Source: Thermoleophilia bacterium (GTDB lineage: Bacteria > Actinomycetota > Thermoleophilia > UBA2241). Taken from it: a stretch of DNA of 64,000 bases. The notes beneath the pieces are model-generated. The model made no database searches. It worked only from the letters and a program-made list of their open reading frames with translations, and was not told the DNA's origin. The position numbers and the translations under genes were made by a program. The stretch spans positions 65,432 through 129,431 of the forward strand of contig JAXGYV010000004.1 of assembly GCA_040772045.1 (NCBI GenBank), written 5' to 3'. Every line of letters starts with the position of its first letter. Within the stretch, counting starts at the first letter, position 1. Shown here one piece after another: positions 15,006-22,256 of the stretch.

Positions 15006-15302
15006 TCAGCGAGGGCGTCTGCCTGAGACAAACCGCAGGCGCTCTACGGGGCAATCCGGGTCGGCGGCGTGCATCTTGGCCAGGAACTCACCGCTCAGAT
15101 AGGTGAGCTCCTGCGCCCAGACCGAGGATTCACATTCGAGGACGAGCGTGCCCCGTGCGAGCCGGACCGGCGTGGCGGCCGCGGTCACGTGCGCTCCCGC
15201 GGCGGCCGACCACGCGGCGTACGCGCGGGCCTCCTCGCCCTCGCGCAGCCTCTCGGCCGTACGCTTCAGCACGTCGCCCAGGCGTACGAACTCGGCCGTC
15301 AT
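15006..15302 (-). CDS. DUF721 family protein (recF-gyrB-associated)
   Basis: Small conserved ORF between recF and gyrB. The likely start is an internal ATG (MTAEF...) overlapping the recF stop (ATGA). The track ORF extends to 15404 but overlaps recF. Confidence 0.55.
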   Translation of the reverse strand: MTAEFVRLGDVLKRTAERLREGEEARAYAAWSAAAGAHVTAAATPVRLARGTLVLECESSVWAQELTYLSGEFLAKMHAADPDCPVERLRFVSGRRPR

Positions 15303-16408
15303 ACCGCACCCTCCGGAGTATTCAAATCGATGACCAGCGCGCGGGCGAGCTCCCCGGAAGTGAAGTACATCGTCGTGGTGGTCGTCACCAGCACCTGGCC
15401 GCACTGCAGAAGCAGTTCCACCAGGAGGCGTCTTCGCCGCTCGTCAAGTTCGCTCATCACGTCGTCGAGGAGCAGCGGCCCAGTCTTGTCGAAGACCTCG
15501 GCGGCCACGTGCCGCTCGGCCAGGAGGAGGGCCAGCACCGCCGCTCGCTGTTCCCCCTGGGAGCCGAAAGGCCGCAGGTCACGACCTAGGGGGCTCGCGC
15601 CGGCCCCGCCCACCTCCAGGAAGCGCAGTTCATCGCGGTGCGGCCCAAGCGAGGTTGTACCGCGAACGATCTCCAGCGCTCGCCGCTGCCGTAGCGCCGC
15701 AAGGTAGGCCTGCACATCGTGCTCGTACTCCGCAAAACCAGACTGGAGCTCGAGATCGAACGTGCCTCCGCACGGCGTGAGGGCGGTGGCATGCTCTGCA
15801 AAGATCGGTCGGAGATATTCCACGAAATCTCTGCGCCGCCTACCCAAGTCGATACCGGCCTGAGCCACCTGCTTGTCCCACGGGTCGAGTGTGCGTTCCG
15901 CCGTGCCGCCACGCACGCGCACCAACTGAGCGTTTCGCTGTCGCAGCGCTAGGTGGAGATCCGTGCTGGCGGCTGCGTAGCTAGCATCCAGCGCGGCGGC
16001 AAACGCGTCAAGGTGAGCGCGGCGACGGGCCGGACTGCCTTTCACCAGAAGCAAACTCTCTGGTACGAAGATGAATACGGCTGCGCGGCGCCGCAATTCC
16101 TCGGCGGTGGCATCGCCTGCGCGACTAACTCGAATACGTCGGCCAGAGCCCGGCGCGAAGTACACCTGGGTACGGCTCCCGTCGTCGAGCTGCGCCTCGG
16201 CTCGCACGTAGCTTGCCCCCCACCGGACGAGCTTTTCGTCGCGGCTCGTCCGTGGCGACGCCGCCCGGAGGGCGTAGAACACCCCCTCGAGTAAGTTCGT
16301 CTTGCCAGCCGCATTCTCACCGACCACGATGTTGAGCCCGGGCGAAAAGACGAACCGGGCTTTGTGGTAGGAGCGGAAGTTCGTCAGTCCTATCTCGGCG
16401 ACGTGCAT
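15299..16408 (-). CDS. recF: DNA replication and repair protein RecF
   Basis: N-terminal Walker A (GENAAGKTNLLEG) and ABC/SMC-like RecF architecture. Conserved dnaN-recF-gyrB synteny. Confidence 0.9.
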   Translation of the reverse strand: MHVAEIGLTNFRSYHKARFVFSPGLNIVVGENAAGKTNLLEGVFYALRAASPRTSRDEKLVRWGASYVRAEAQLDDGSRTQVYFAPGSGRRIRVSRAGDATAEELRRRAAVFIFVPESLLLVKGSPARRRAHLDAFAAALDASYAAASTDLHLALRQRNAQLVRVRGGTAERTLDPWDKQVAQAGIDLGRRRRDFVEYLRPIFAEHATALTPCGGTFDLELQSGFAEYEHDVQAYLAALRQRRALEIVRGTTSLGPHRDELRFLEVGGAGASPLGRDLRPFGSQGEQRAAVLALLLAERHVAAEVFDKTGPLLLDDVMSELDERRRRLLVELLLQCGQVLVTTTTTMYFTSGELARALVIDLNTPEGAV

Positions 16409-16601: not shown

Positions 16602-17714
16602 TCAGGTGCTCAGGCGAATCGGCATGATCAGGTACACGAAATCGGCCGCCGCCTCATCTACCCCTGTGATAAGTCCGGGCCGAAGAGGACTGATCAGTTT
16701 GAGGGAGATCTTGCTCCCCTCCACGGCCTCCACCCCGTCGATAAGGTACGCGTGGTTGAATCCGATCTCGAAATCCTCACCCTCGTACGCGACATCGATC
16801 TGCTCTTCCGCCTGGCCGACATCTTGCGTAATCGCCCGCATGGTTAGCGATCCGGCGGAGAACCGCAGGCGAAGCGGAGCGTTTTTCTGAGCGAGTAGTC
16901 CAACCCGGCGGGCGACAGCGAGGAACGACTCCTTCTCCAATTCAAGCTCGTGCTCATACGCGTCTGGGAGCAGCTGCTTGTAATTCGGGAAAGCGCCATC
17001 GATGAGCCGCGTAGCGAGCACGACCTCGCCGAACCCAAAAACCGCCTGATTTTCAGTCACGGCAACGTCAACCGCATCGCGATCGCCCGCCGCAGCCAGC
17101 CGAGCGACCTCTCCCAGCGCCTTTACGGGCACGATCGCTTGCATCTCTATCTCTGGCCCGCCCTCCAGCTGCGACTGCTTCACAGCTAAACGATAACTAT
17201 CAGTCGCCACCATCTTCAGCGAGCCTCCACCCAGCACAACTAACACACCGGTGAGAATCGGGCGCGTCTCATCCCTCGAAGCGGCTCGCGCCACCTTGCT
17301 GAGGGTCTCGACGAGAGGGTCGGCGGCCACGCGGAAACTCGCAGAGAGATCGAATGCCGATGTCTGTGGAAAATCGCTAGCCGCCCACGAGTTCAGCTCG
17401 AACATCGCTTTCCCCGCGACCACCTGCACGGTGCCACCGCCACCACTCTCCACGGTAACCTCGTCCCCCGACAGGTTACGTACGATGTCGGAGAACAGTC
17501 GCGCCGGAACAACCACGTCACCCGGCTCATCGATAGTGCTCGTCAGCGTCGCCCTTACAGAGATCTCCATATCGGTCGCATACAAGTTCAAACGCTCTTC
17601 GGAGGCCTGCAGGAGGATGCCCGAGAGCACCGGTAGTGCACTCCGCGCCGATACGGCACGTGCAAGCACAGCGAGTCTGTCAACGAGGGTGCCACGGTCA
17701 CACCGGAGTCTCAT
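16602..17714 (-). CDS. dnaN: DNA polymerase III beta sliding clamp
   Basis: 370 aa three-domain clamp. Sits immediately downstream of dnaA and oriC. Confidence 0.9.
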   Translation of the reverse strand: MRLRCDRGTLVDRLAVLARAVSARSALPVLSGILLQASEERLNLYATDMEISVRATLTSTIDEPGDVVVPARLFSDIVRNLSGDEVTVESGGGGTVQVVAGKAMFELNSWAASDFPQTSAFDLSASFRVAADPLVETLSKVARAASRDETRPILTGVLVVLGGGSLKMVATDSYRLAVKQSQLEGGPEIEMQAIVPVKALGEVARLAAAGDRDAVDVAVTENQAVFGFGEVVLATRLIDGAFPNYKQLLPDAYEHELELEKESFLAVARRVGLLAQKNAPLRLRFSAGSLTMRAITQDVGQAEEQIDVAYEGEDFEIGFNHAYLIDGVEAVEGSKISLKLISPLRPGLITGVDEAAADFVYLIMPIRLST

Positions 17715-17979
17715 GCCAGCTCCTTATTTCTATGAAGAAAGTTCCTTTGTATCTGCTTCATCGTCATTATCATCTGCTGGAAGCTGTGTAGAACTGCGGG
17801 GGTGCGTGCAGAATGCGTAGTCCTCCGCAGTTCATCGTCCTGTGGACGCCGTGTGGATAAGTGTGAACGTTTACCATCCGCCAGGCGACCACACACAGCA
17901 TAGTCGGTTAAAGGGTGGGTTGTGAATCGCTCATCCTCACCATTCCACAGTCACGCTCACAACCGGTCGGGTCGCGGGC
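17715..17979. promoter_or_regulatory. oriC candidate (dnaA-dnaN intergenic): DnaA boxes plus AT-rich DNA unwinding element
   Basis: A perfect DnaA box TGTGGATAA (17852-17860) is flanked by the near-boxes TGTGGACGC, TGTGAACGT, TGTGAATCG, ATTCCACAG and TTTCACACG. AT-rich stretch at 17721-17775 (ttatttctatgaagaaagttcctttgtatctgcttcatcgtcattatcatc) in an otherwise ~68% GC genome. Confidence 0.7.
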
Positions 17980-19437
17980 CTAGCGGGTGGCTTTCACACG
18001 GTCAGTTACAGTCTGTACGAGCTCGTGGAGCTGGCGGTCGTGACCATCCTTGAGGAGACGCTCGATCTTTTGGATGGCGTAGAGAACAGTAGTGTGGTGA
18101 CGACCACCGAAGCGCTCGCCGATTTGAGGAAGAGACGCATCGGTGAGCTCACGCGAGATATACATGGCGACTTGGCGCGCGTATGCCAGGTCTTGTGTAC
18201 GACGATCGCCGCGGAGGTCGCTGATGTGACAGCCGAATTGCCGGGCGACCTCTGCCTGCACCGCGTCGACTGTAACGGGCATTCTGAACGCGTGAGGGAG
18301 GATATCCTTGAGGGCCTCCTGCGCGAGCGGCAGCGTAATTTCCCCTCCCCGGACGGCTGCGAAGCTGACCACCCGTGTGAGCGCCCCGTGGAGTTCACGG
18401 ATATTAGACGTAACGCGTGCGGCGATGTACTCGAGCACCTCACCCTCGCGGATCGGCAGGCCATCCCATTTGACCTGTCGCCGCAGGATTGCGATGCGTG
18501 TCTCTAGGTCGGGCCGGCCAATGTCGACGACGACACCAGCGCCGAAGCGAGAGCGGAGCCGCTCCTCCAATGCCTCCAGCTCCCGAGGAGGTCTGTCCGA
18601 CGTGATCACGATCTGCTTGCCGGCTTCGTACAGCGAGTTGAAGGTATGAAAGAACTCGACCTGTGTCTGCTGCTTCTCAGCGAGGAACTGAACATCGTCC
18701 ACGAGGAGGATGTCGTTGTCGCGATAAGCTTGTTTGAACCCCTCGATGCGCCCCTTGTCGGTAAGCGCGTTGATGAAGTCGTCGGTGAAGCGTTCCACGG
18801 TGACGTACTTGAACTGCAACCGTGGATGACTCGCCAGTGCCGCATGAGCGATAGCTTGCACGAGGTGCGTCTTCCCAAGGCCTGTATCGGCATAGATGAA
18901 GACGGGGTTGTACGCGGTTGCGGGCGACTCGGCGACGCTATTAGCTACCGCGGCGGCGTACTCATTGTGCGGCCCGATCACGAAACGCGCGAACGTATAC
19001 CGGGGATTAAGCTCCTGCGTCGCCTTCGCCACGGGCGCGGAGGGCTCCGCGACCCCTGGAGCTGTAGTTTTCGCTGGTGATACTGGCGCCGTGGACTGCT
19101 GGGCTTCGTCTGGGGGAGAACTTTCGGCGGGTTTCTGCGCCTCAGCCCGATCATCTACCACGATACATACGGTGATCGGCGTGGAGAGAACAGTCGTCAA
19201 CGCGTTCGTGAGGAGAGGTCCGAACCGCTTCTCCACCCAGTCACGCATGAACTCACTCGCTACACCGAGGGTGAAGGTATCGTTCGAGAGCGCAACCGCG
19301 ACGGAAGGAGCGAAGAAGAGACGATACGTCGCCTCGTTCACGTGCTGCTGGAGGTAAACCCGGGCCTCATCCCAGATGCGTGTTAGGTGGTCGTCGATCG
19401 CGTGGCTCCTCTGCGTCGAACCGGATGCGAATGGCAT
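17980..19437 (-). CDS. dnaA: chromosomal replication initiator protein DnaA
   Basis: AAA+ Walker A/B and a C-terminal DnaA-box-binding domain. 485 aa with an extended, proline/alanine-rich domain II. Confidence 0.95.
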   Translation of the reverse strand: MPFASGSTQRSHAIDDHLTRIWDEARVYLQQHVNEATYRLFFAPSVAVALSNDTFTLGVASEFMRDWVEKRFGPLLTNALTTVLSTPITVCIVVDDRAEAQKPAESSPPDEAQQSTAPVSPAKTTAPGVAEPSAPVAKATQELNPRYTFARFVIGPHNEYAAAVANSVAESPATAYNPVFIYADTGLGKTHLVQAIAHAALASHPRLQFKYVTVERFTDDFINALTDKGRIEGFKQAYRDNDILLVDDVQFLAEKQQTQVEFFHTFNSLYEAGKQIVITSDRPPRELEALEERLRSRFGAGVVVDIGRPDLETRIAILRRQVKWDGLPIREGEVLEYIAARVTSNIRELHGALTRVVSFAAVRGGEITLPLAQEALKDILPHAFRMPVTVDAVQAEVARQFGCHISDLRGDRRTQDLAYARQVAMYISRELTDASLPQIGERFGGRHHTTVLYAIQKIERLLKDGHDRQLHELVQTVTDRVKATR

Positions 19438-20267
19438 TACAGGATGGATTCCAGGAGAGAAGCGCCCCCTTCAGTAAGCACCCGTTTCCCGTCGCCGACG
19501 GGACGAACCAGGCCGGCTCGTTCCAGTATACCGAGTTCACGAAAAGCCGTAGCTGGAGCGATTTCCAACTCCTTGGCTAGGGGTGTTGGCCCAGCGGCGC
19601 CGAGCTCCATGAGCAAGACGAGCATGCGCTTTTGCCGGGTGGTAAGACGTACCGCGGGCTCGGCCGGAGTTGAGGGAGGACGAGCCTCACCCGTCTTGTG
19701 GGGCAGCCGTATGGTGAGCACGGTACCGCCGCCCAGGTTGTCCTCGATGGTGAGCACGCCGCGCAGGAACGCCAGCGACTCCTGGGCGATCGGCAGCCCG
19801 GACCCCACGCCACGAATCCAGTGCCGCTGAGCGGCGGTCGCTGTAGTGAAGCCGGGCTGGATGGCCCTGGCTTTGTCGGCGATGCCAGGGCCGTGATCCG
19901 ATATCCGCAAGACCTGTCCGCCGTCTAGGACCGTGACTACCACATCCTGAAATGAAGCGTGAATGAGATTCTCGATGAGCTCTCGAATGACCGTGTATGG
20001 GACCTGTCCGCCCTGCTCCCGGCAGTGCCGGTACGTCTCTGTGGCGAGTGAGCCGATAAGCGCGGGCAAGTCGGCCTCTTCCACGGTGATTACCCGCGGC
20101 GGGCTGGTCAGCGTGTCGTAGACGGCGATTCGTGGTGCCCCCGGTCCGCGGAGCGGGCCCTCTCCCTCCGGCGCGCTGGGCCCGTTGTCGCACGCACGCT
20201 CGTCGGCGCAGCTGGGCGCCGGCGCGTCGCTGTGACCGGCGAGAAGCCTCTCGAGGAAGGACTCCAT
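19437..20267 (-). CDS. GHKL (histidine-kinase-like) ATPase domain fused to a C-terminal winged helix-turn-helix domain; translationally coupled to dnaA
   Basis: HATPase_c motifs: N-box ELIENLIHA, G1 DHGPGI, G2 GSGLPI. C-terminal MarR/ArsR-like wHTH (TTRQKRMLVLLMELG...LAKELEIAPATAFRELGILERAGLV). Its stop codon overlaps the dnaA start (TAATG). Confidence 0.7.
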   Translation of the reverse strand: MESFLERLLAGHSDAPAPSCADERACDNGPSAPEGEGPLRGPGAPRIAVYDTLTSPPRVITVEEADLPALIGSLATETYRHCREQGGQVPYTVIRELIENLIHASFQDVVVTVLDGGQVLRISDHGPGIADKARAIQPGFTTATAAQRHWIRGVGSGLPIAQESLAFLRGVLTIEDNLGGGTVLTIRLPHKTGEARPPSTPAEPAVRLTTRQKRMLVLLMELGAAGPTPLAKELEIAPATAFRELGILERAGLVRPVGDGKRVLTEGGASLLESIL

Positions 20268-20354
20268 GGGCCGCCGAGTATAGCAGAGGCACTACGCCGA
20301 CCGAAAAGGCGCTCGGAAGCGATGAAACGCTAGCGAGCGGCAGAATCGCCGCCG

Positions 20355-20700
20355 TTCTCCACAAGGTTTTCGACAACTGTGGAGAAAGGCCCGAGGCCGC
20401 TGATCGAATTCCCGGTAAATGCGCGGCTTGTGGAAACTGGGGTTTCACGCCACATGAGAGCCAGTTGGTGGACGCAGTTCTCTCAGGGTACCCCGGCGGT
20501 GGGCTTTCTGCGGCCACTTGGTTCGTGGCGGCAGAGCAAACCTGCTGCATAGCGTGCATGAACGCAGAGAATCTCGCGGGTCGAGCAGTGTCAAGAGCTT
20601 GTTGAGGACCGAGTCGCTTATCCACGTGACCCACGAGCCTGGATGCGCGCAAAAAGGAAGATATCCACACTTTCCACAGATGACCGTGGAGAGATGCTGC
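20355..20700. promoter_or_regulatory. second DnaA-box cluster in the divergent promoter region upstream of the GHKL-wHTH/dnaA operon
   Basis: TTCTCCACA (20355-63) and TGTGGAGAA (20378-86) form a perfect inverted pair. Further boxes: TGTGGAAAC (20429-37), TTATCCACG (20618-26), ATATCCACA (20661-69), TTTCCACAG (20671-79) and CGTGGAGAG (20686-94). Confidence 0.55.
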
Positions 20701-20764
20701 GTCACACGAAACAGGTGTGGGACGTGCCCTGTTGGGCGAAGAGGTACACTCTTTCTGCTGCGGA

Positions 20765-20885
20765 GCTCCCGAACGAGGGGCTGAGAAGGCGCTTCCTGGT
20801 GCCGACGCACAGGACCTGACCACCCCCATGGGTGGCGGCGTCACGGCGACGCTGCTGGGTAATGCCAGCGAAGGGAGAGAGACTG
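20765..20885 (+). ncRNA. TPP (thiamine pyrophosphate) riboswitch candidate
   Basis: Conserved THI-element blocks appear in the expected order: GGGGCUGAGA ... ACCUGA ... CUGGGUAAUGCCAGCGAAGGGAG. It sits immediately 5' of the thiT-like transporter / thiamine pyrophosphokinase genes. An unusual ~35-nt insertion forming two small hairpins lies between ACCUGA and the GGGUAAUGCC block. Confidence 0.65.
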
Positions 20886-20887
20886 AG

Positions 20888-21565
20888 ATGTCACAGGTGT
20901 CCGTTTGTTCCCCGAGCTGCGCGCGTGCCTCGCGCGCACACACACAAATGAGCATGAACCCCGCGCGATGGGGCGCGCGGGGCCTGGCGGAGGTCGCGGT
21001 GGCCATCGCCCTGGCCGCCGCGCTCGGGTTCGTGAAGCCGTTCACCATGCCACAAGGTGGGTCTGTGAGCCTCGAGATGCTCCCGCTCGTCTTCGTGGCC
21101 ATACGCGTCGGCGTGGGCCCGGCGCTGGTGGCGGGGGGGCTCTATGGCTTCGTGCAGCTCGTCCTGCCGGGTGCATACATTTACCACCCCGCGCAGGTCG
21201 CTCTCGACTACCCGCTGGCGTACATGGCGATCGCCGCCGCCGGCCTGCTCCATGTGAGGGGGTGGCGCGCCCTCGCCGCCTCCGTGGCGCTCGCCGCCAC
21301 AGGGCGGCTGGTATTTCACTTTCTGTCGGGCATCATTTTCTTCGCCACCTACGCGCGCGACCTGGGTTGGAACCCATGGCTCTACTCCCTCTCGTACAAC
21401 GTGCTCTACCTCGTGCCCGAGGCTGCTATTACCGCAGTGATCCTCTGGCCGCTGCTGAAAGCGTACGACGCAGCCTTTCCCGGCGGCACCTCGGCCGGTG
21501 TTCTCGAGGGAGAGCGGAGTGCGGTAGCCGGTGAGAACCATCACCGGCCGGACTGCTGTGGCTGA
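20888..21565 (+). CDS. thiamine transporter ThiT-like (ECF-type S component / YuaJ family) membrane protein
   Basis: About 200 aa multi-TM protein downstream of the TPP riboswitch. An alternative in-frame ATG lies at 20948. The N-terminal part of track ORF 20717.. overlaps the riboswitch and is not coding. Confidence 0.65.
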   Translation: MSQVSVCSPSCARASRAHTQMSMNPARWGARGLAEVAVAIALAAALGFVKPFTMPQGGSVSLEMLPLVFVAIRVGVGPALVAGGLYGFVQLVLPGAYIYHPAQVALDYPLAYMAIAAAGLLHVRGWRALAASVALAATGRLVFHFLSGIIFFATYARDLGWNPWLYSLSYNVLYLVPEAAITAVILWPLLKAYDAAFPGGTSAGVLEGERSAVAGENHHRPDCCG

Positions 21566-22256
21566 GGAGGTTAGGGCCCGCGCCGCCGTCGCGGCCGTCT
21601 TCCTCAACGGGGAGTATGAGCCCGAGCCGGCCTTCTATCGCCAGGCGGCTGAGGGCGCGAGCATGTTGATCGGCGCGGACGGCGGGGCGGCGTGGATGAT
21701 TAAGCTAGGGCTGCTGCCGTCGGTCGTTGTCGGCGACTTCGATTCACTGTCGCCGCTGGCGCTGGAGGAGTTGCAGGCGAAAGGTGTGAGGAGCGTGCGC
21801 CATCCGGTCCGCAAGGACCGCACCGACGCCGAGCTTGCGGTCGGTGAGGCCTTACGCATGGGTGCCGGCGCCATCGATGTGTTCGGCGGGCTTGGCGCGG
21901 GCTTCGACTATGCGGTGGGGCACGTGGCGCTGCTGCGCGGTCTGGCGCGGCGTCGCGTGCCGGCCCGGCTGCTGGAGCCCGCCCTCACGTTCATGGTCAT
22001 GCCAGCGCGCAGCCGCCTCTCCGTAAGCGCGTCGCCCGGATCTCGCTTCTCGCTCCAGCCGCTCACGCAGCGAGCTGTGGTAAGCCTGAGGGGTTTCGAC
22101 TACGAGCTTCGGGCGGCGCGGCTGCGCGCCGACGCGTGCCGCGGACTAGGGAACATGGTGACCCGCCACGATGCGGAGGTCCTGGTGCACGCGGGCCTAG
22201 CGGCCGTGCATGTGGGTGCTCCCCTCCAGCCTTTCTGGTCGGGCATGACGGCGTAA
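21531..22256 (+). CDS. thiamine pyrophosphokinase
   Basis: TPK motifs GADGGA and GDFDS. Co-oriented with the thiT-like gene and overlaps it. Confidence 0.8.
   Translation: MRTITGRTAVAEEVRARAAVAAVFLNGEYEPEPAFYRQAAEGASMLIGADGGAAWMIKLGLLPSVVVGDFDSLSPLALEELQAKGVRSVRHPVRKDRTDAELAVGEALRMGAGAIDVFGGLGAGFDYAVGHVALLRGLARRRVPARLLEPALTFMVMPARSRLSVSASPGSRFSLQPLTQRAVVSLRGFDYELRAARLRADACRGLGNMVTRHDAEVLVHAGLAAVHVGAPLQPFWSGMTA

Follow-up and report, generated by a model that had tools for sequence, protein, structure and literature searches.

A predicted GHKL-type ATPase fused to a winged helix precedes dnaA at the replication origin in many Actinomycetota and in part of a second phylum: a candidate regulator of chromosome replication

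The regulators of replication initiation described so far, such as SeqA, Hda, YabA, SirA, Soj and HobA, are lineage-restricted, and to our knowledge the control of DnaA outside a few model species is largely unknown. Soj is a nucleotide switch with DNA binding; we know of no regulator of DnaA or of the origin, oriC, which is a GHKL protein, and of none which leads the dnaA operon across phyla. The layout of the origin itself has been described in Bacillus subtilis, in which it is split by dnaA and the basal unwinding arrangement consists of DnaA boxes, DnaA-trios and an AT-rich stretch (PMC6669920). The present analysis concerns a 276-aa open reading frame (ORF), encoding a predicted GHKL-type ATPase domain fused to a winged helix-turn-helix (wHTH) and hereafter called the GHKL-wHTH gene, which lies directly before dnaA in a stretch of 64,000 nucleotides from a Thermoleophilia bacterium (assembly GCA_040772045.1, contig JAXGYV010000004.1, positions 65,432 to 129,431). 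This whole stretch is referred to as the window, and coordinates are those of the window unless a genome handle is given.

We regard the gene, which is conserved, encodes ATP-binding and DNA-binding domains and is placed directly before dnaA inside the origin, as a strong candidate for a new replication regulator. On sequence and predicted structure, there is about an even chance that its product is a nucleotide-dependent DNA-binding regulator acting at oriC or at the dnaA promoter, where it would tune initiation or the supply of DnaA; this reading is drawn from the ATP site, the MarR-type fold, the tethered N-terminal motif and the strict linkage to dnaA within the origin. A broader proposal, that the family constitutes a new class of initiation factor, namely an oriC-encoded GHKL ATP switch which would bind origin DNA or DnaA and gate initiation or the positioning of the origin, is tentative and has in our view somewhat less than an even chance. 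If true, such a class would be at work in much of the Actinomycetota (Thermoleophilia, and Coriobacteriia with the Collinsella of the human gut) and in part of a Bacillota-type phylum.

Homologues of the protein number at least 1940 in a collection clustered at 90%, and 316 clusters at 50% identity were found at E<=1e-30. Record titles place the carriers in Thermoleophilia, Gaiellales, Coriobacteriia (Slackia, Raoultibacter), Candidatus Hakubella, Candidatus Humimicrobiia, Armatimonadota and metagenome-assembled genomes (MAGs) labelled Clostridia or Eubacteriales, and one member is annotated as 'ATP-binding protein [Collinsella intestinalis]'. Among the relatives of the window genome, the gene is carried by all 24 genomes of its own family and by two further families of the class. 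It was found in 157 of 397 sampled high-quality Actinomycetota genomes, with one strong match each, and in 31 of 301 sampled genomes of a second, Bacillota-type phylum, that of a Clostridia-labelled MAG. Presence is all-or-none per family, e.g. in Actinomycetota 32/33, 13/13 and 30/30 vs 0/27, 0/20 and 0/24. Furthermore, the gene occurs as a single copy, no genome showed it at any other place, and a tblastn search of plasmid and phage collections returned no match to the family. An apparent second copy in one genome (G217) was rejected: both matches, at G217:C13:25457-26199 and immediately before dnaA, are parts of one gene which a frameshift or a sequencing error has divided between two reading frames.

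The most consistent property of the family is its position. At every locus examined, about 120 in two phyla, the next gene downstream, in the same orientation, is dnaA, followed by dnaN and usually by recF, and the adjacency to dnaA which a sequence-only reading of this DNA had proposed to look for in relatives is thereby established. The loci were drawn from somewhat fewer genomes, some of which were sampled twice. In one set dnaA was adjacent in 80/80 loci; a strict rule based on the first high-scoring segment pair (HSP) was passed by 72 of 77, and in the five failing loci the first HSP merely starts later in DnaA. The same adjacency was observed in 20/20 loci taken one per further family, and in one locus (L017), on a complete contig, the link crosses from one end to the other, dnaA standing at G030:C1:55. 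The dnaA-adjacent members span 36-70% identity.

The gene had also been read as a replacement of rpmH, which does not apply in general, since in 74 loci of other families rpmH is still there, in divergent orientation and at a distance of 0.5-0.9 kb upstream. The general layout can be written as rpmH <- DnaA boxes -> GHKL-wHTH -> dnaA -> boxes/DnaA-trios/AT-rich -> dnaN. Only in the window's family do thiT and the thiamine pyrophosphokinase gene (TPK) stand where rpmH is expected; the rpmH of the window genome is on another contig, at C7:18885-19013 (G000, L125), away from dnaA. In related families without the gene, dnaA is adjoined by the textbook rnpA/yidD/yidC (rpmH) cluster, or by parA.

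Long spurious ORFs do arise in GC-rich genomes, and several of them overlap this locus. The chance that the GHKL-wHTH ORF is one of these, arisen in GC-rich intergenic DNA, is nonetheless negligible: it is ruled out by conservation down to 36% identity, invariant catalytic motifs, a match to Pfam HATPase_c above the cut-off (48 bits, E 2e-12, cut-off 26.4) and a confidently predicted fold. The GC content at third codon positions (GC3) of the gene, 0.74, is near the 0.71 of dnaA. ELIENLIHA, DHGPGI and GSGLPI, the motifs on which the first assignment had relied, are all present as written, at residues 96-104, 124-129 and 155-160, and they mark the N-box Asn (N100), the G1 box (D-x-G-x-G) and the G2 box (G-x-G-x-G) of GHKL proteins. 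In an alignment of 37 sequences spanning several phyla, HATPase_c was matched by every member and the residues of the nucleotide site E96, N100, H103, D124, G126, P127, G128, G153, G155 and G157 are invariant. The same holds in the winged helix for R243, located in the recognition helix, for L248, and for G260 and R262 in the wing.

An AlphaFold2 (AF2) model of the protein, built on 23 relatives and with a mean pLDDT of 84, consists of a helix at residues 4-9, a disordered stretch at 11-44 (pLDDT<50 over 11-32), an alpha/beta sandwich ATP-binding domain at 45-193 (pLDDT >90 over most of 45-190) and the winged helix, with a short disordered linker between the two domains; the region preceding the ATP domain is composed of strand-strand-helix plus disordered linker. 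Among the structural matches of the ATP domain were 3lmm (Z 12.7), SpoIIAB (1l0o, Z 11.7), and histidine-kinase CA domains and NifL (Z ~11.3). The winged helix was superposed on MarR-family chains, including that of the MarR-DNA complex 5h3r, with Z 12.9 and an rmsd of 1.0-1.1 A over 68-70 residues. PADLOC matched the winged helix only, to helices of the Csa3/CasR type. In three loci of Collinsella type (L108, L112 and L118, families f20, f28 and f45), the ATP domain is joined to the winged helix by a low-complexity stretch of 100-150 P/Q/Y/G-rich residues, and these members are proteins of 340-450 aa.

The extreme N-terminus is conserved as well. A short aromatic motif of the form M-x-x-F-[FLY] is near-universal, recurring in distant members such as those of Collinsella, and in many members is lengthened to FLxRLL; it always runs into a low-complexity tether, whose length varies. 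It reads MESFLERLL in the window, MKxFF/FY in members of Coriobacteriia type and MSDDFYPFV in those of Collinsella type. One alternative to the proposed regulator builds on this element: the protein may be an origin organiser, an ATP switch which sits on origin DNA through its winged helix and by its N-terminal motif anchors the origin to the membrane or some other structure. The principle would be that of Noc, a ParB-like CTP switch with a 10-residue N-terminal membrane-targeting helix (PMC8429893), which provides a precedent. The conservation of the motif across phyla, on a disordered tether of variable length, is in keeping with an anchor, as is the placing of M1, F4, L5, L8 and L9 of MESFLERLL on one face of the predicted helix 4-9. 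However, the motif is net acidic in the window's family and only ~5 residues long in Coriobacteriia, which is atypical for membrane-targeting helices, and a tethering role is in our judgement decidedly improbable. The likeness to Noc is moreover one of design only (a domain for a nucleotide, another for specific DNA sequences, and a short amphipathic motif at the N-terminus), fold and nucleotide being unrelated, and membrane binding of the GHKL-wHTH protein is pure conjecture.

ATP-hydrolysing or Ser-kinase GHKL proteins (MutL, GyrB, PDK, SpoIIAB), unlike typical histidine kinases, have a Glu four residues ahead of the Asn that binds Mg, and the E96-x3-N100 spacing of the window protein corresponds to that arrangement. 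This invariant spacing is among the features which would suit a partner switch or protein kinase of the SpoIIAB/RsbW or PDK/BCK kind. In its ATP form the GHKL domain would bind DnaA or another protein of replication, and possibly phosphorylate it on Ser/Thr, and the winged helix would serve only to position the protein at the origin. The structural match to SpoIIAB (1l0o_A) covers 128/141 residues at an rmsd of 3.1 A, i.e. almost the whole kinase with its N-terminal strand-helix elements included; some relatives are labelled 'anti-sigma regulatory factor (Ser/Thr protein kinase)', and the tethered N-terminal motif resembles a partner-binding peptide. In the comparison with RsbW/SpoIIAB which the sequence-only reading had recommended, the fold is thus recovered, together with a small Bergerat-fold domain, an N-terminal strand-helix before the N-box helix, E-x3-N and a His shortly after the Asn, but the family profiles are not: the anti-sigma model TIGR01925 scores 17.8 bits against a cut-off of 135, leaving the protein outside the family profile, HATPase_c_2 matches 1/37 members (E 0.002), and histidine-kinase CA domains match equally well. 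Furthermore, the family differs from SpoIIAB and RsbW in its fused winged helix, its tethered N-terminal motif and its linkage to dnaA, and no gene for a STAS antagonist or sigma partner was found in the window or in the loci mapped by tblastn, where the gene is surrounded only by dnaA, dnaN, recF, and thiT/TPK or rpmH. We consider the partner switch unlikely. A complex prediction of DnaA with the GHKL-wHTH protein scored 0.11 vs a mark of 0.32, which was not counted for or against any of these readings.

The DNA around the gene has the features of an origin. DnaA boxes were scored as 9-mer mismatches to TTATCCACA. Seven box 9-mers with at most two mismatches, four of them with at most one, lie in the 324 bp upstream at 20355-20678, among them an inverted pair at 20355(+) and 20378(-), and the at least seven box-like 9-mers announced for this region, including each of those listed, were all recovered. 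The whole 1.92-Mb assembly contains 125 boxes with at most one mismatch (1 perfect and 124 one-mismatch; 0.065 per kb), and the 500-bp stretch from 20355 is its only one with 4 of them, the number outside this region never exceeding 2; the density is thus not a genome-wide background. The genome's single perfect TTATCCACA is found on the other side of dnaA, in the dnaA-dnaN spacer at 17852-17860, where two 2-mismatch sites occur besides the degenerate GCGTCCACA. Classical DnaA-trios are not evident in this spacer, which has only a GAT-periodic AT-rich run. Of the canonical box cluster and unwinding element expected there, the perfect box and the lowest-GC 40-mer are present; the cluster is modest in this genome. 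Box clusters flank dnaA on both sides, with the AT-rich element before dnaN, which is the layout of a bipartite oriC. The lowest-GC stretch before dnaN, together with the minimum of the cumulative GC skew of the contig at 16.6-18.6 kb of the window, identifies the locus as the chromosome origin region.

The anatomy was also surveyed in relatives, for which 600 bp upstream of the gene were compared in 122 loci. DnaA-box 7-mers dominate these regions, with TCCACAG in 93% of the loci. An arrangement TCCACA-N12-16-TGTGGA is present in 87/122 loci, with N14 in 79 instances, and the module has the form TCCACA-nn-TGTGGAAAG-nnn-TGTGGA, the middle box having decayed to TGTCGAAAA in the window's family (20367 site). 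Further upstream, abutting tandem boxes occur in 45/122 loci, in one orientation only and never in the opposite one, and in the 13 aligned upstream regions of the window's family all boxes are conserved. The dnaA-dnaN spacers of relatives contain tandem boxes followed by CTACTA-type DnaA-trios and an AT-rich run, with at least two CTACTA-type hexamers on the strand opposite dnaA in 35 of 101. Since this spacer arrangement matches that of B. subtilis and boxes are located on both sides, the origin here is, judging by its layout, of bipartite type.

Two further motifs were considered as operators of the winged helix. Loci of other families than that of the window show TT[AT]TCAACA at 19-25 fold enrichment in both halves of the origin, which is not so for other single-base variants; this 9-mer often replaces the box directly before the DnaA-trios (e.g. 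L105, L117, L119, L122). As it stands at this expected box position, it is probably a lineage-specific DnaA-box variant, and its interpretation as a separate winged-helix operator was set aside for the same reason, that it occupies DnaA-box positions. GTTTCA(C)/GTGAAAC is seen at three upstream places in the window's family, at ~20290-20320, 20455-20461 and 20700-20710; GTTTCAC/GTGAAAC is present in 21/42 loci of this family vs 5/80 elsewhere, and was set aside as a general operator because it is conserved in the window's family only.

At the junction with dnaA, the TAA stop of the GHKL-wHTH gene overlaps the ATG of dnaA (19437) by a single base, giving the TAATG overlap noted in the first description of the locus. 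No Shine-Dalgarno sequence was found before the ATG of the GHKL-wHTH gene or of dnaA, and the minus strand shows no terminator-like site. An extended -10 promoter element, TGCTATACT, lies 9 nt upstream of the ATG in the window and 9-10 nt across the 13 upstream regions of the family. Because this invariant element adjoins the ATG, the mRNA of the operon is probably leaderless or nearly so, starting downstream of the boxes. We infer from this organisation that the gene is co-transcribed with dnaA, and the promoter may reasonably be supposed to be controlled by DnaA. The contigs of four public runs at the locus, some of which bridge 19437, are flagged as probably DNA and are uninformative on transcripts. 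In relatives, the gap between the GHKL-wHTH stop and dnaA ranges over ~3-130 bp, and the TAATG overlap is particular to the window genome, so stoichiometric, translationally coupled synthesis is not a family trait; of the proposed coupling to dnaA, it is the place at the head of the operon which is retained. Between the gene stop and the annotated DnaA homology, a GC-rich GCCGCCGCATCC-like string is conserved in several relatives (L002, L006-L009, L011 and L021). In the window this string forms codons 2-5 of DnaA, which suggests that DnaA starts earlier in those relatives, possibly at a non-ATG codon.

Taken as a mechanism, the preferred reading of a nucleotide-switched, DNA-binding regulator would run as follows. 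The GHKL-wHTH gene is promoter-proximal in the dnaA operon, between the two box regions of a bipartite-type origin, and would be transcribed from a DnaA-box-flanked promoter as a probably leaderless mRNA running on into dnaA. The protein would then act at oriC or at the dnaA promoter, on replication initiation or on DnaA supply, with ATP, through its binding or hydrolysis, switching how the protein oligomerises or sits on DNA. That it binds DNA, turns over ATP and affects initiation is predicted.

Several observations weigh against this regulator at the origin. Adjacency to dnaA is linkage, not mechanism. The C-terminal winged helix of the window protein is matched by the MarR, HTH_20 and ArsR profiles below their cut-offs in every case (MarR 19.7 bits vs 24.6), and among the 37 members MarR is reached at E<=0.01 by 18/37 and HVO_A0261_N by 30/37; in the AF2 model the domain is a clear MarR-type fold. 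The motif search of upstream and spacer regions yielded no operator for the winged helix distinct from DnaA boxes. A family without the gene (f6) has 2-6 boxes upstream of dnaA with the same paired spacing, and the idea that the upstream box cluster is tied to the presence of the gene was rejected on this account: the upstream boxes are conserved in relatives, but, as they are present also where the gene is not, the module belongs to the dnaA operon and the origin more than to the GHKL-wHTH gene. Lastly, many Actinomycetota families are without the gene, which is accordingly not a universal requirement.

The missing origin-specific operator and the absence of the gene from many lineages would fit a nucleotide sensor or a transcription factor of the ordinary kind, acting on targets outside replication, whose place before dnaA was frozen for the sake of expression level or timing; most regulators with a winged helix control transcription, either locally or globally. 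Against such a protein stands the adjacency to dnaA, without exception in ~120 loci of two phyla and over 36-70% identity, in a gene that is single-copy, located nowhere else in the genomes and without plasmid or phage match. So strict a linkage is seldom kept without functional coupling, we would argue, and an ordinary regulator appears improbable beside a regulator acting on the origin or on dnaA expression.

The features of the locus are collected in Table 1. On the minus strand, the order is box region, GHKL-wHTH gene, dnaA, spacer, dnaN, S4 ORF, recF, dciA, gyrB and gyrA. A role of the GHKL-wHTH protein as substitute for the helicase operator was rejected, as dciA is present right after recF. 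The S4-domain ORF lies between dnaN and recF, overlaps the start region of recF, and is similar to the small gene of yaaA type which other dnaA-dnaN-recF clusters contain. In the opposite direction to the dnaA operon, a thiamine transporter of ThiT type and TPK are encoded at 20948-21565 and 21531-22256 (+). The weak TPP-riboswitch match precedes them, and the thiT/TPK neighbourhood is kept throughout the family of the window genome, at the place taken by rpmH in other families.

Table 1. Coordinates of the genes, protein domains and origin elements at the dnaA locus of the window
Feature	Position	Strand	Basis or remark
GHKL-ATPase/winged-helix gene, 276 aa, first in dnaA operon	19437..20267	-	ORF list; HATPase_c 48 bits; homologues
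N-terminal motif MESFLERLL, residues 1-9, then low-complexity linker 10-44	20241..20267	-	AF2, alignments
Bergerat-fold ATP-binding domain, residues 45-193	19689..20135	-	invariant residues; VIA-align matches
MarR-like winged helix-turn-helix, residues 204-276	19440..19658	-	structural matches; invariant residues
Extended -10 promoter element TGCTATACT	20277..20285	-	invariant in 13 aligned upstream regions of family
Triple DnaA-box module: TTCTCCACA (+), degenerate TTTTCGACA (+), TTCTCCACA (-)	20355..20386		
DnaA-box-like GTTTCCACA, 2 mismatches	20429..20437	-	position kept in family alignment
DnaA box TTATCCACG	20618..20626	+	kept in family alignment
Two abutting DnaA boxes, ATATCCACA + CTTTCCACA	20661..20678	+	
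dnaA, 485 aa	17980..19437	-	Bac_DnaA, Bac_DnaA_C, DnaA_N matches
dnaA-dnaN spacer, 265 bp	between 17980 and 17714		
Tandem boxes in dnaA-dnaN spacer: TTATCCACA + degenerate GCGTCCACA	17841..17860	-	
AT-rich stretch, candidate unwinding element	17721..17770		lowest-GC 40-mers of whole 64-kb window, just before dnaN
dnaN	16602..17714	-	three beta-clamp domains
S4-domain ORF, 54 aa	16390-16554	-	S4_2, 55 bits
recF	15299..16408	-	SMC_N match
dciA (helicase operator)	15006..15404	-	PF05258, 59 bits
Weak TPP-riboswitch match	20749-20894	+	32 bits, E 0.0017; below the gathering score of 54.3

Near-identical DNA to window positions 17700-20900 is found in 15 public metagenome runs of sludge, biogas fermenters and mixed cultures, and an anaerobic-digester habitat is what the evidence points to for the window genome (1.9-Mb, 66% GC, Thermoleophilia-like).

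The protein is built of ordinary domains. The family itself, like its architecture and its constant position at the head of the dnaA operon, appears to be undescribed. Curated families (Pfam, NCBIfam), automatic cluster names and source annotations assign no function beyond 'ATP-binding protein', NCBIfam has no dedicated model, the protein matching those for histidine kinases, MutL and SpoIIAB in part only, and a literature search around the dnaA neighbourhood and GHKL proteins found no paper on the family. The earlier impression that no described family has this arrangement is in line with these searches, in which no curated family, functional name or paper came to light. The gene offers a concrete candidate for the control of initiation in Thermoleophilia, Coriobacteriia and their relatives, including the abundant gut commensals Collinsella and Slackia, of which cultures exist. 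Moreover, the textbook rpmH-dnaA junction has an extra gene in many lineages, which matters for origin prediction and annotation.

Among known systems, histidine-kinase CA domains provide the best sequence matches, and the N, G1, F-like (PGFTTA) and G2 boxes are all present in the protein. It differs from these kinases in being without a DHp/HisKA domain, sensor or transmembrane part and in the Glu placed four residues before the Mg-binding Asn; no HisKA-type Pfam match was obtained in the window protein or in the 37 members, and no response regulator is a neighbour, the flanks being dnaA and either thiT or rpmH. A similar architecture is that of DIP2311 of Corynebacterium diphtheriae (3lmm), a structural-genomics target of unknown function in which a GHKL-like domain is likewise followed by a winged helix. 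It was the top Foldseek hit (E 3e-7), and its match of Z 12.7 extends over 152 residues, the likeness being limited to the GHKL-plus-wHTH part. At roughly double the length, DIP2311 includes a further domain at its N-terminus (AlbA_2) and shares only 14-15% identity with the protein, and neither AlbA_2 nor HATPase_c_4 was matched among the 37 members. With MarR regulators, the family shares the core of the fold but is without the N- and C-terminal dimer helices: the alignment covers the ~70-residue core of ~140-residue chains, and the protein ends with the winged helix.

At the level of function, the candidate class would be that of a DnaA/oriC accessory factor, shared with Hda, YabA, SirA, Soj/ParA, DiaA/HobA, SeqA, DnaD, MtrA and CtrA; none of the known DnaA/oriC regulator families appeared in the Pfam and NCBIfam results or among the structural matches listed, absence from which does not exclude them. 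As for the locus, it resembles the bipartite oriC of B. subtilis and Helicobacter pylori, in which box clusters flank dnaA and unwinding takes place in the dnaA-dnaN interval; here too, boxes precede the dnaA operon and recur in the dnaA-dnaN spacer. The difference is that here an extra protein-coding gene stands beside dnaA between the two halves of the origin, which are separated by two genes instead of one.

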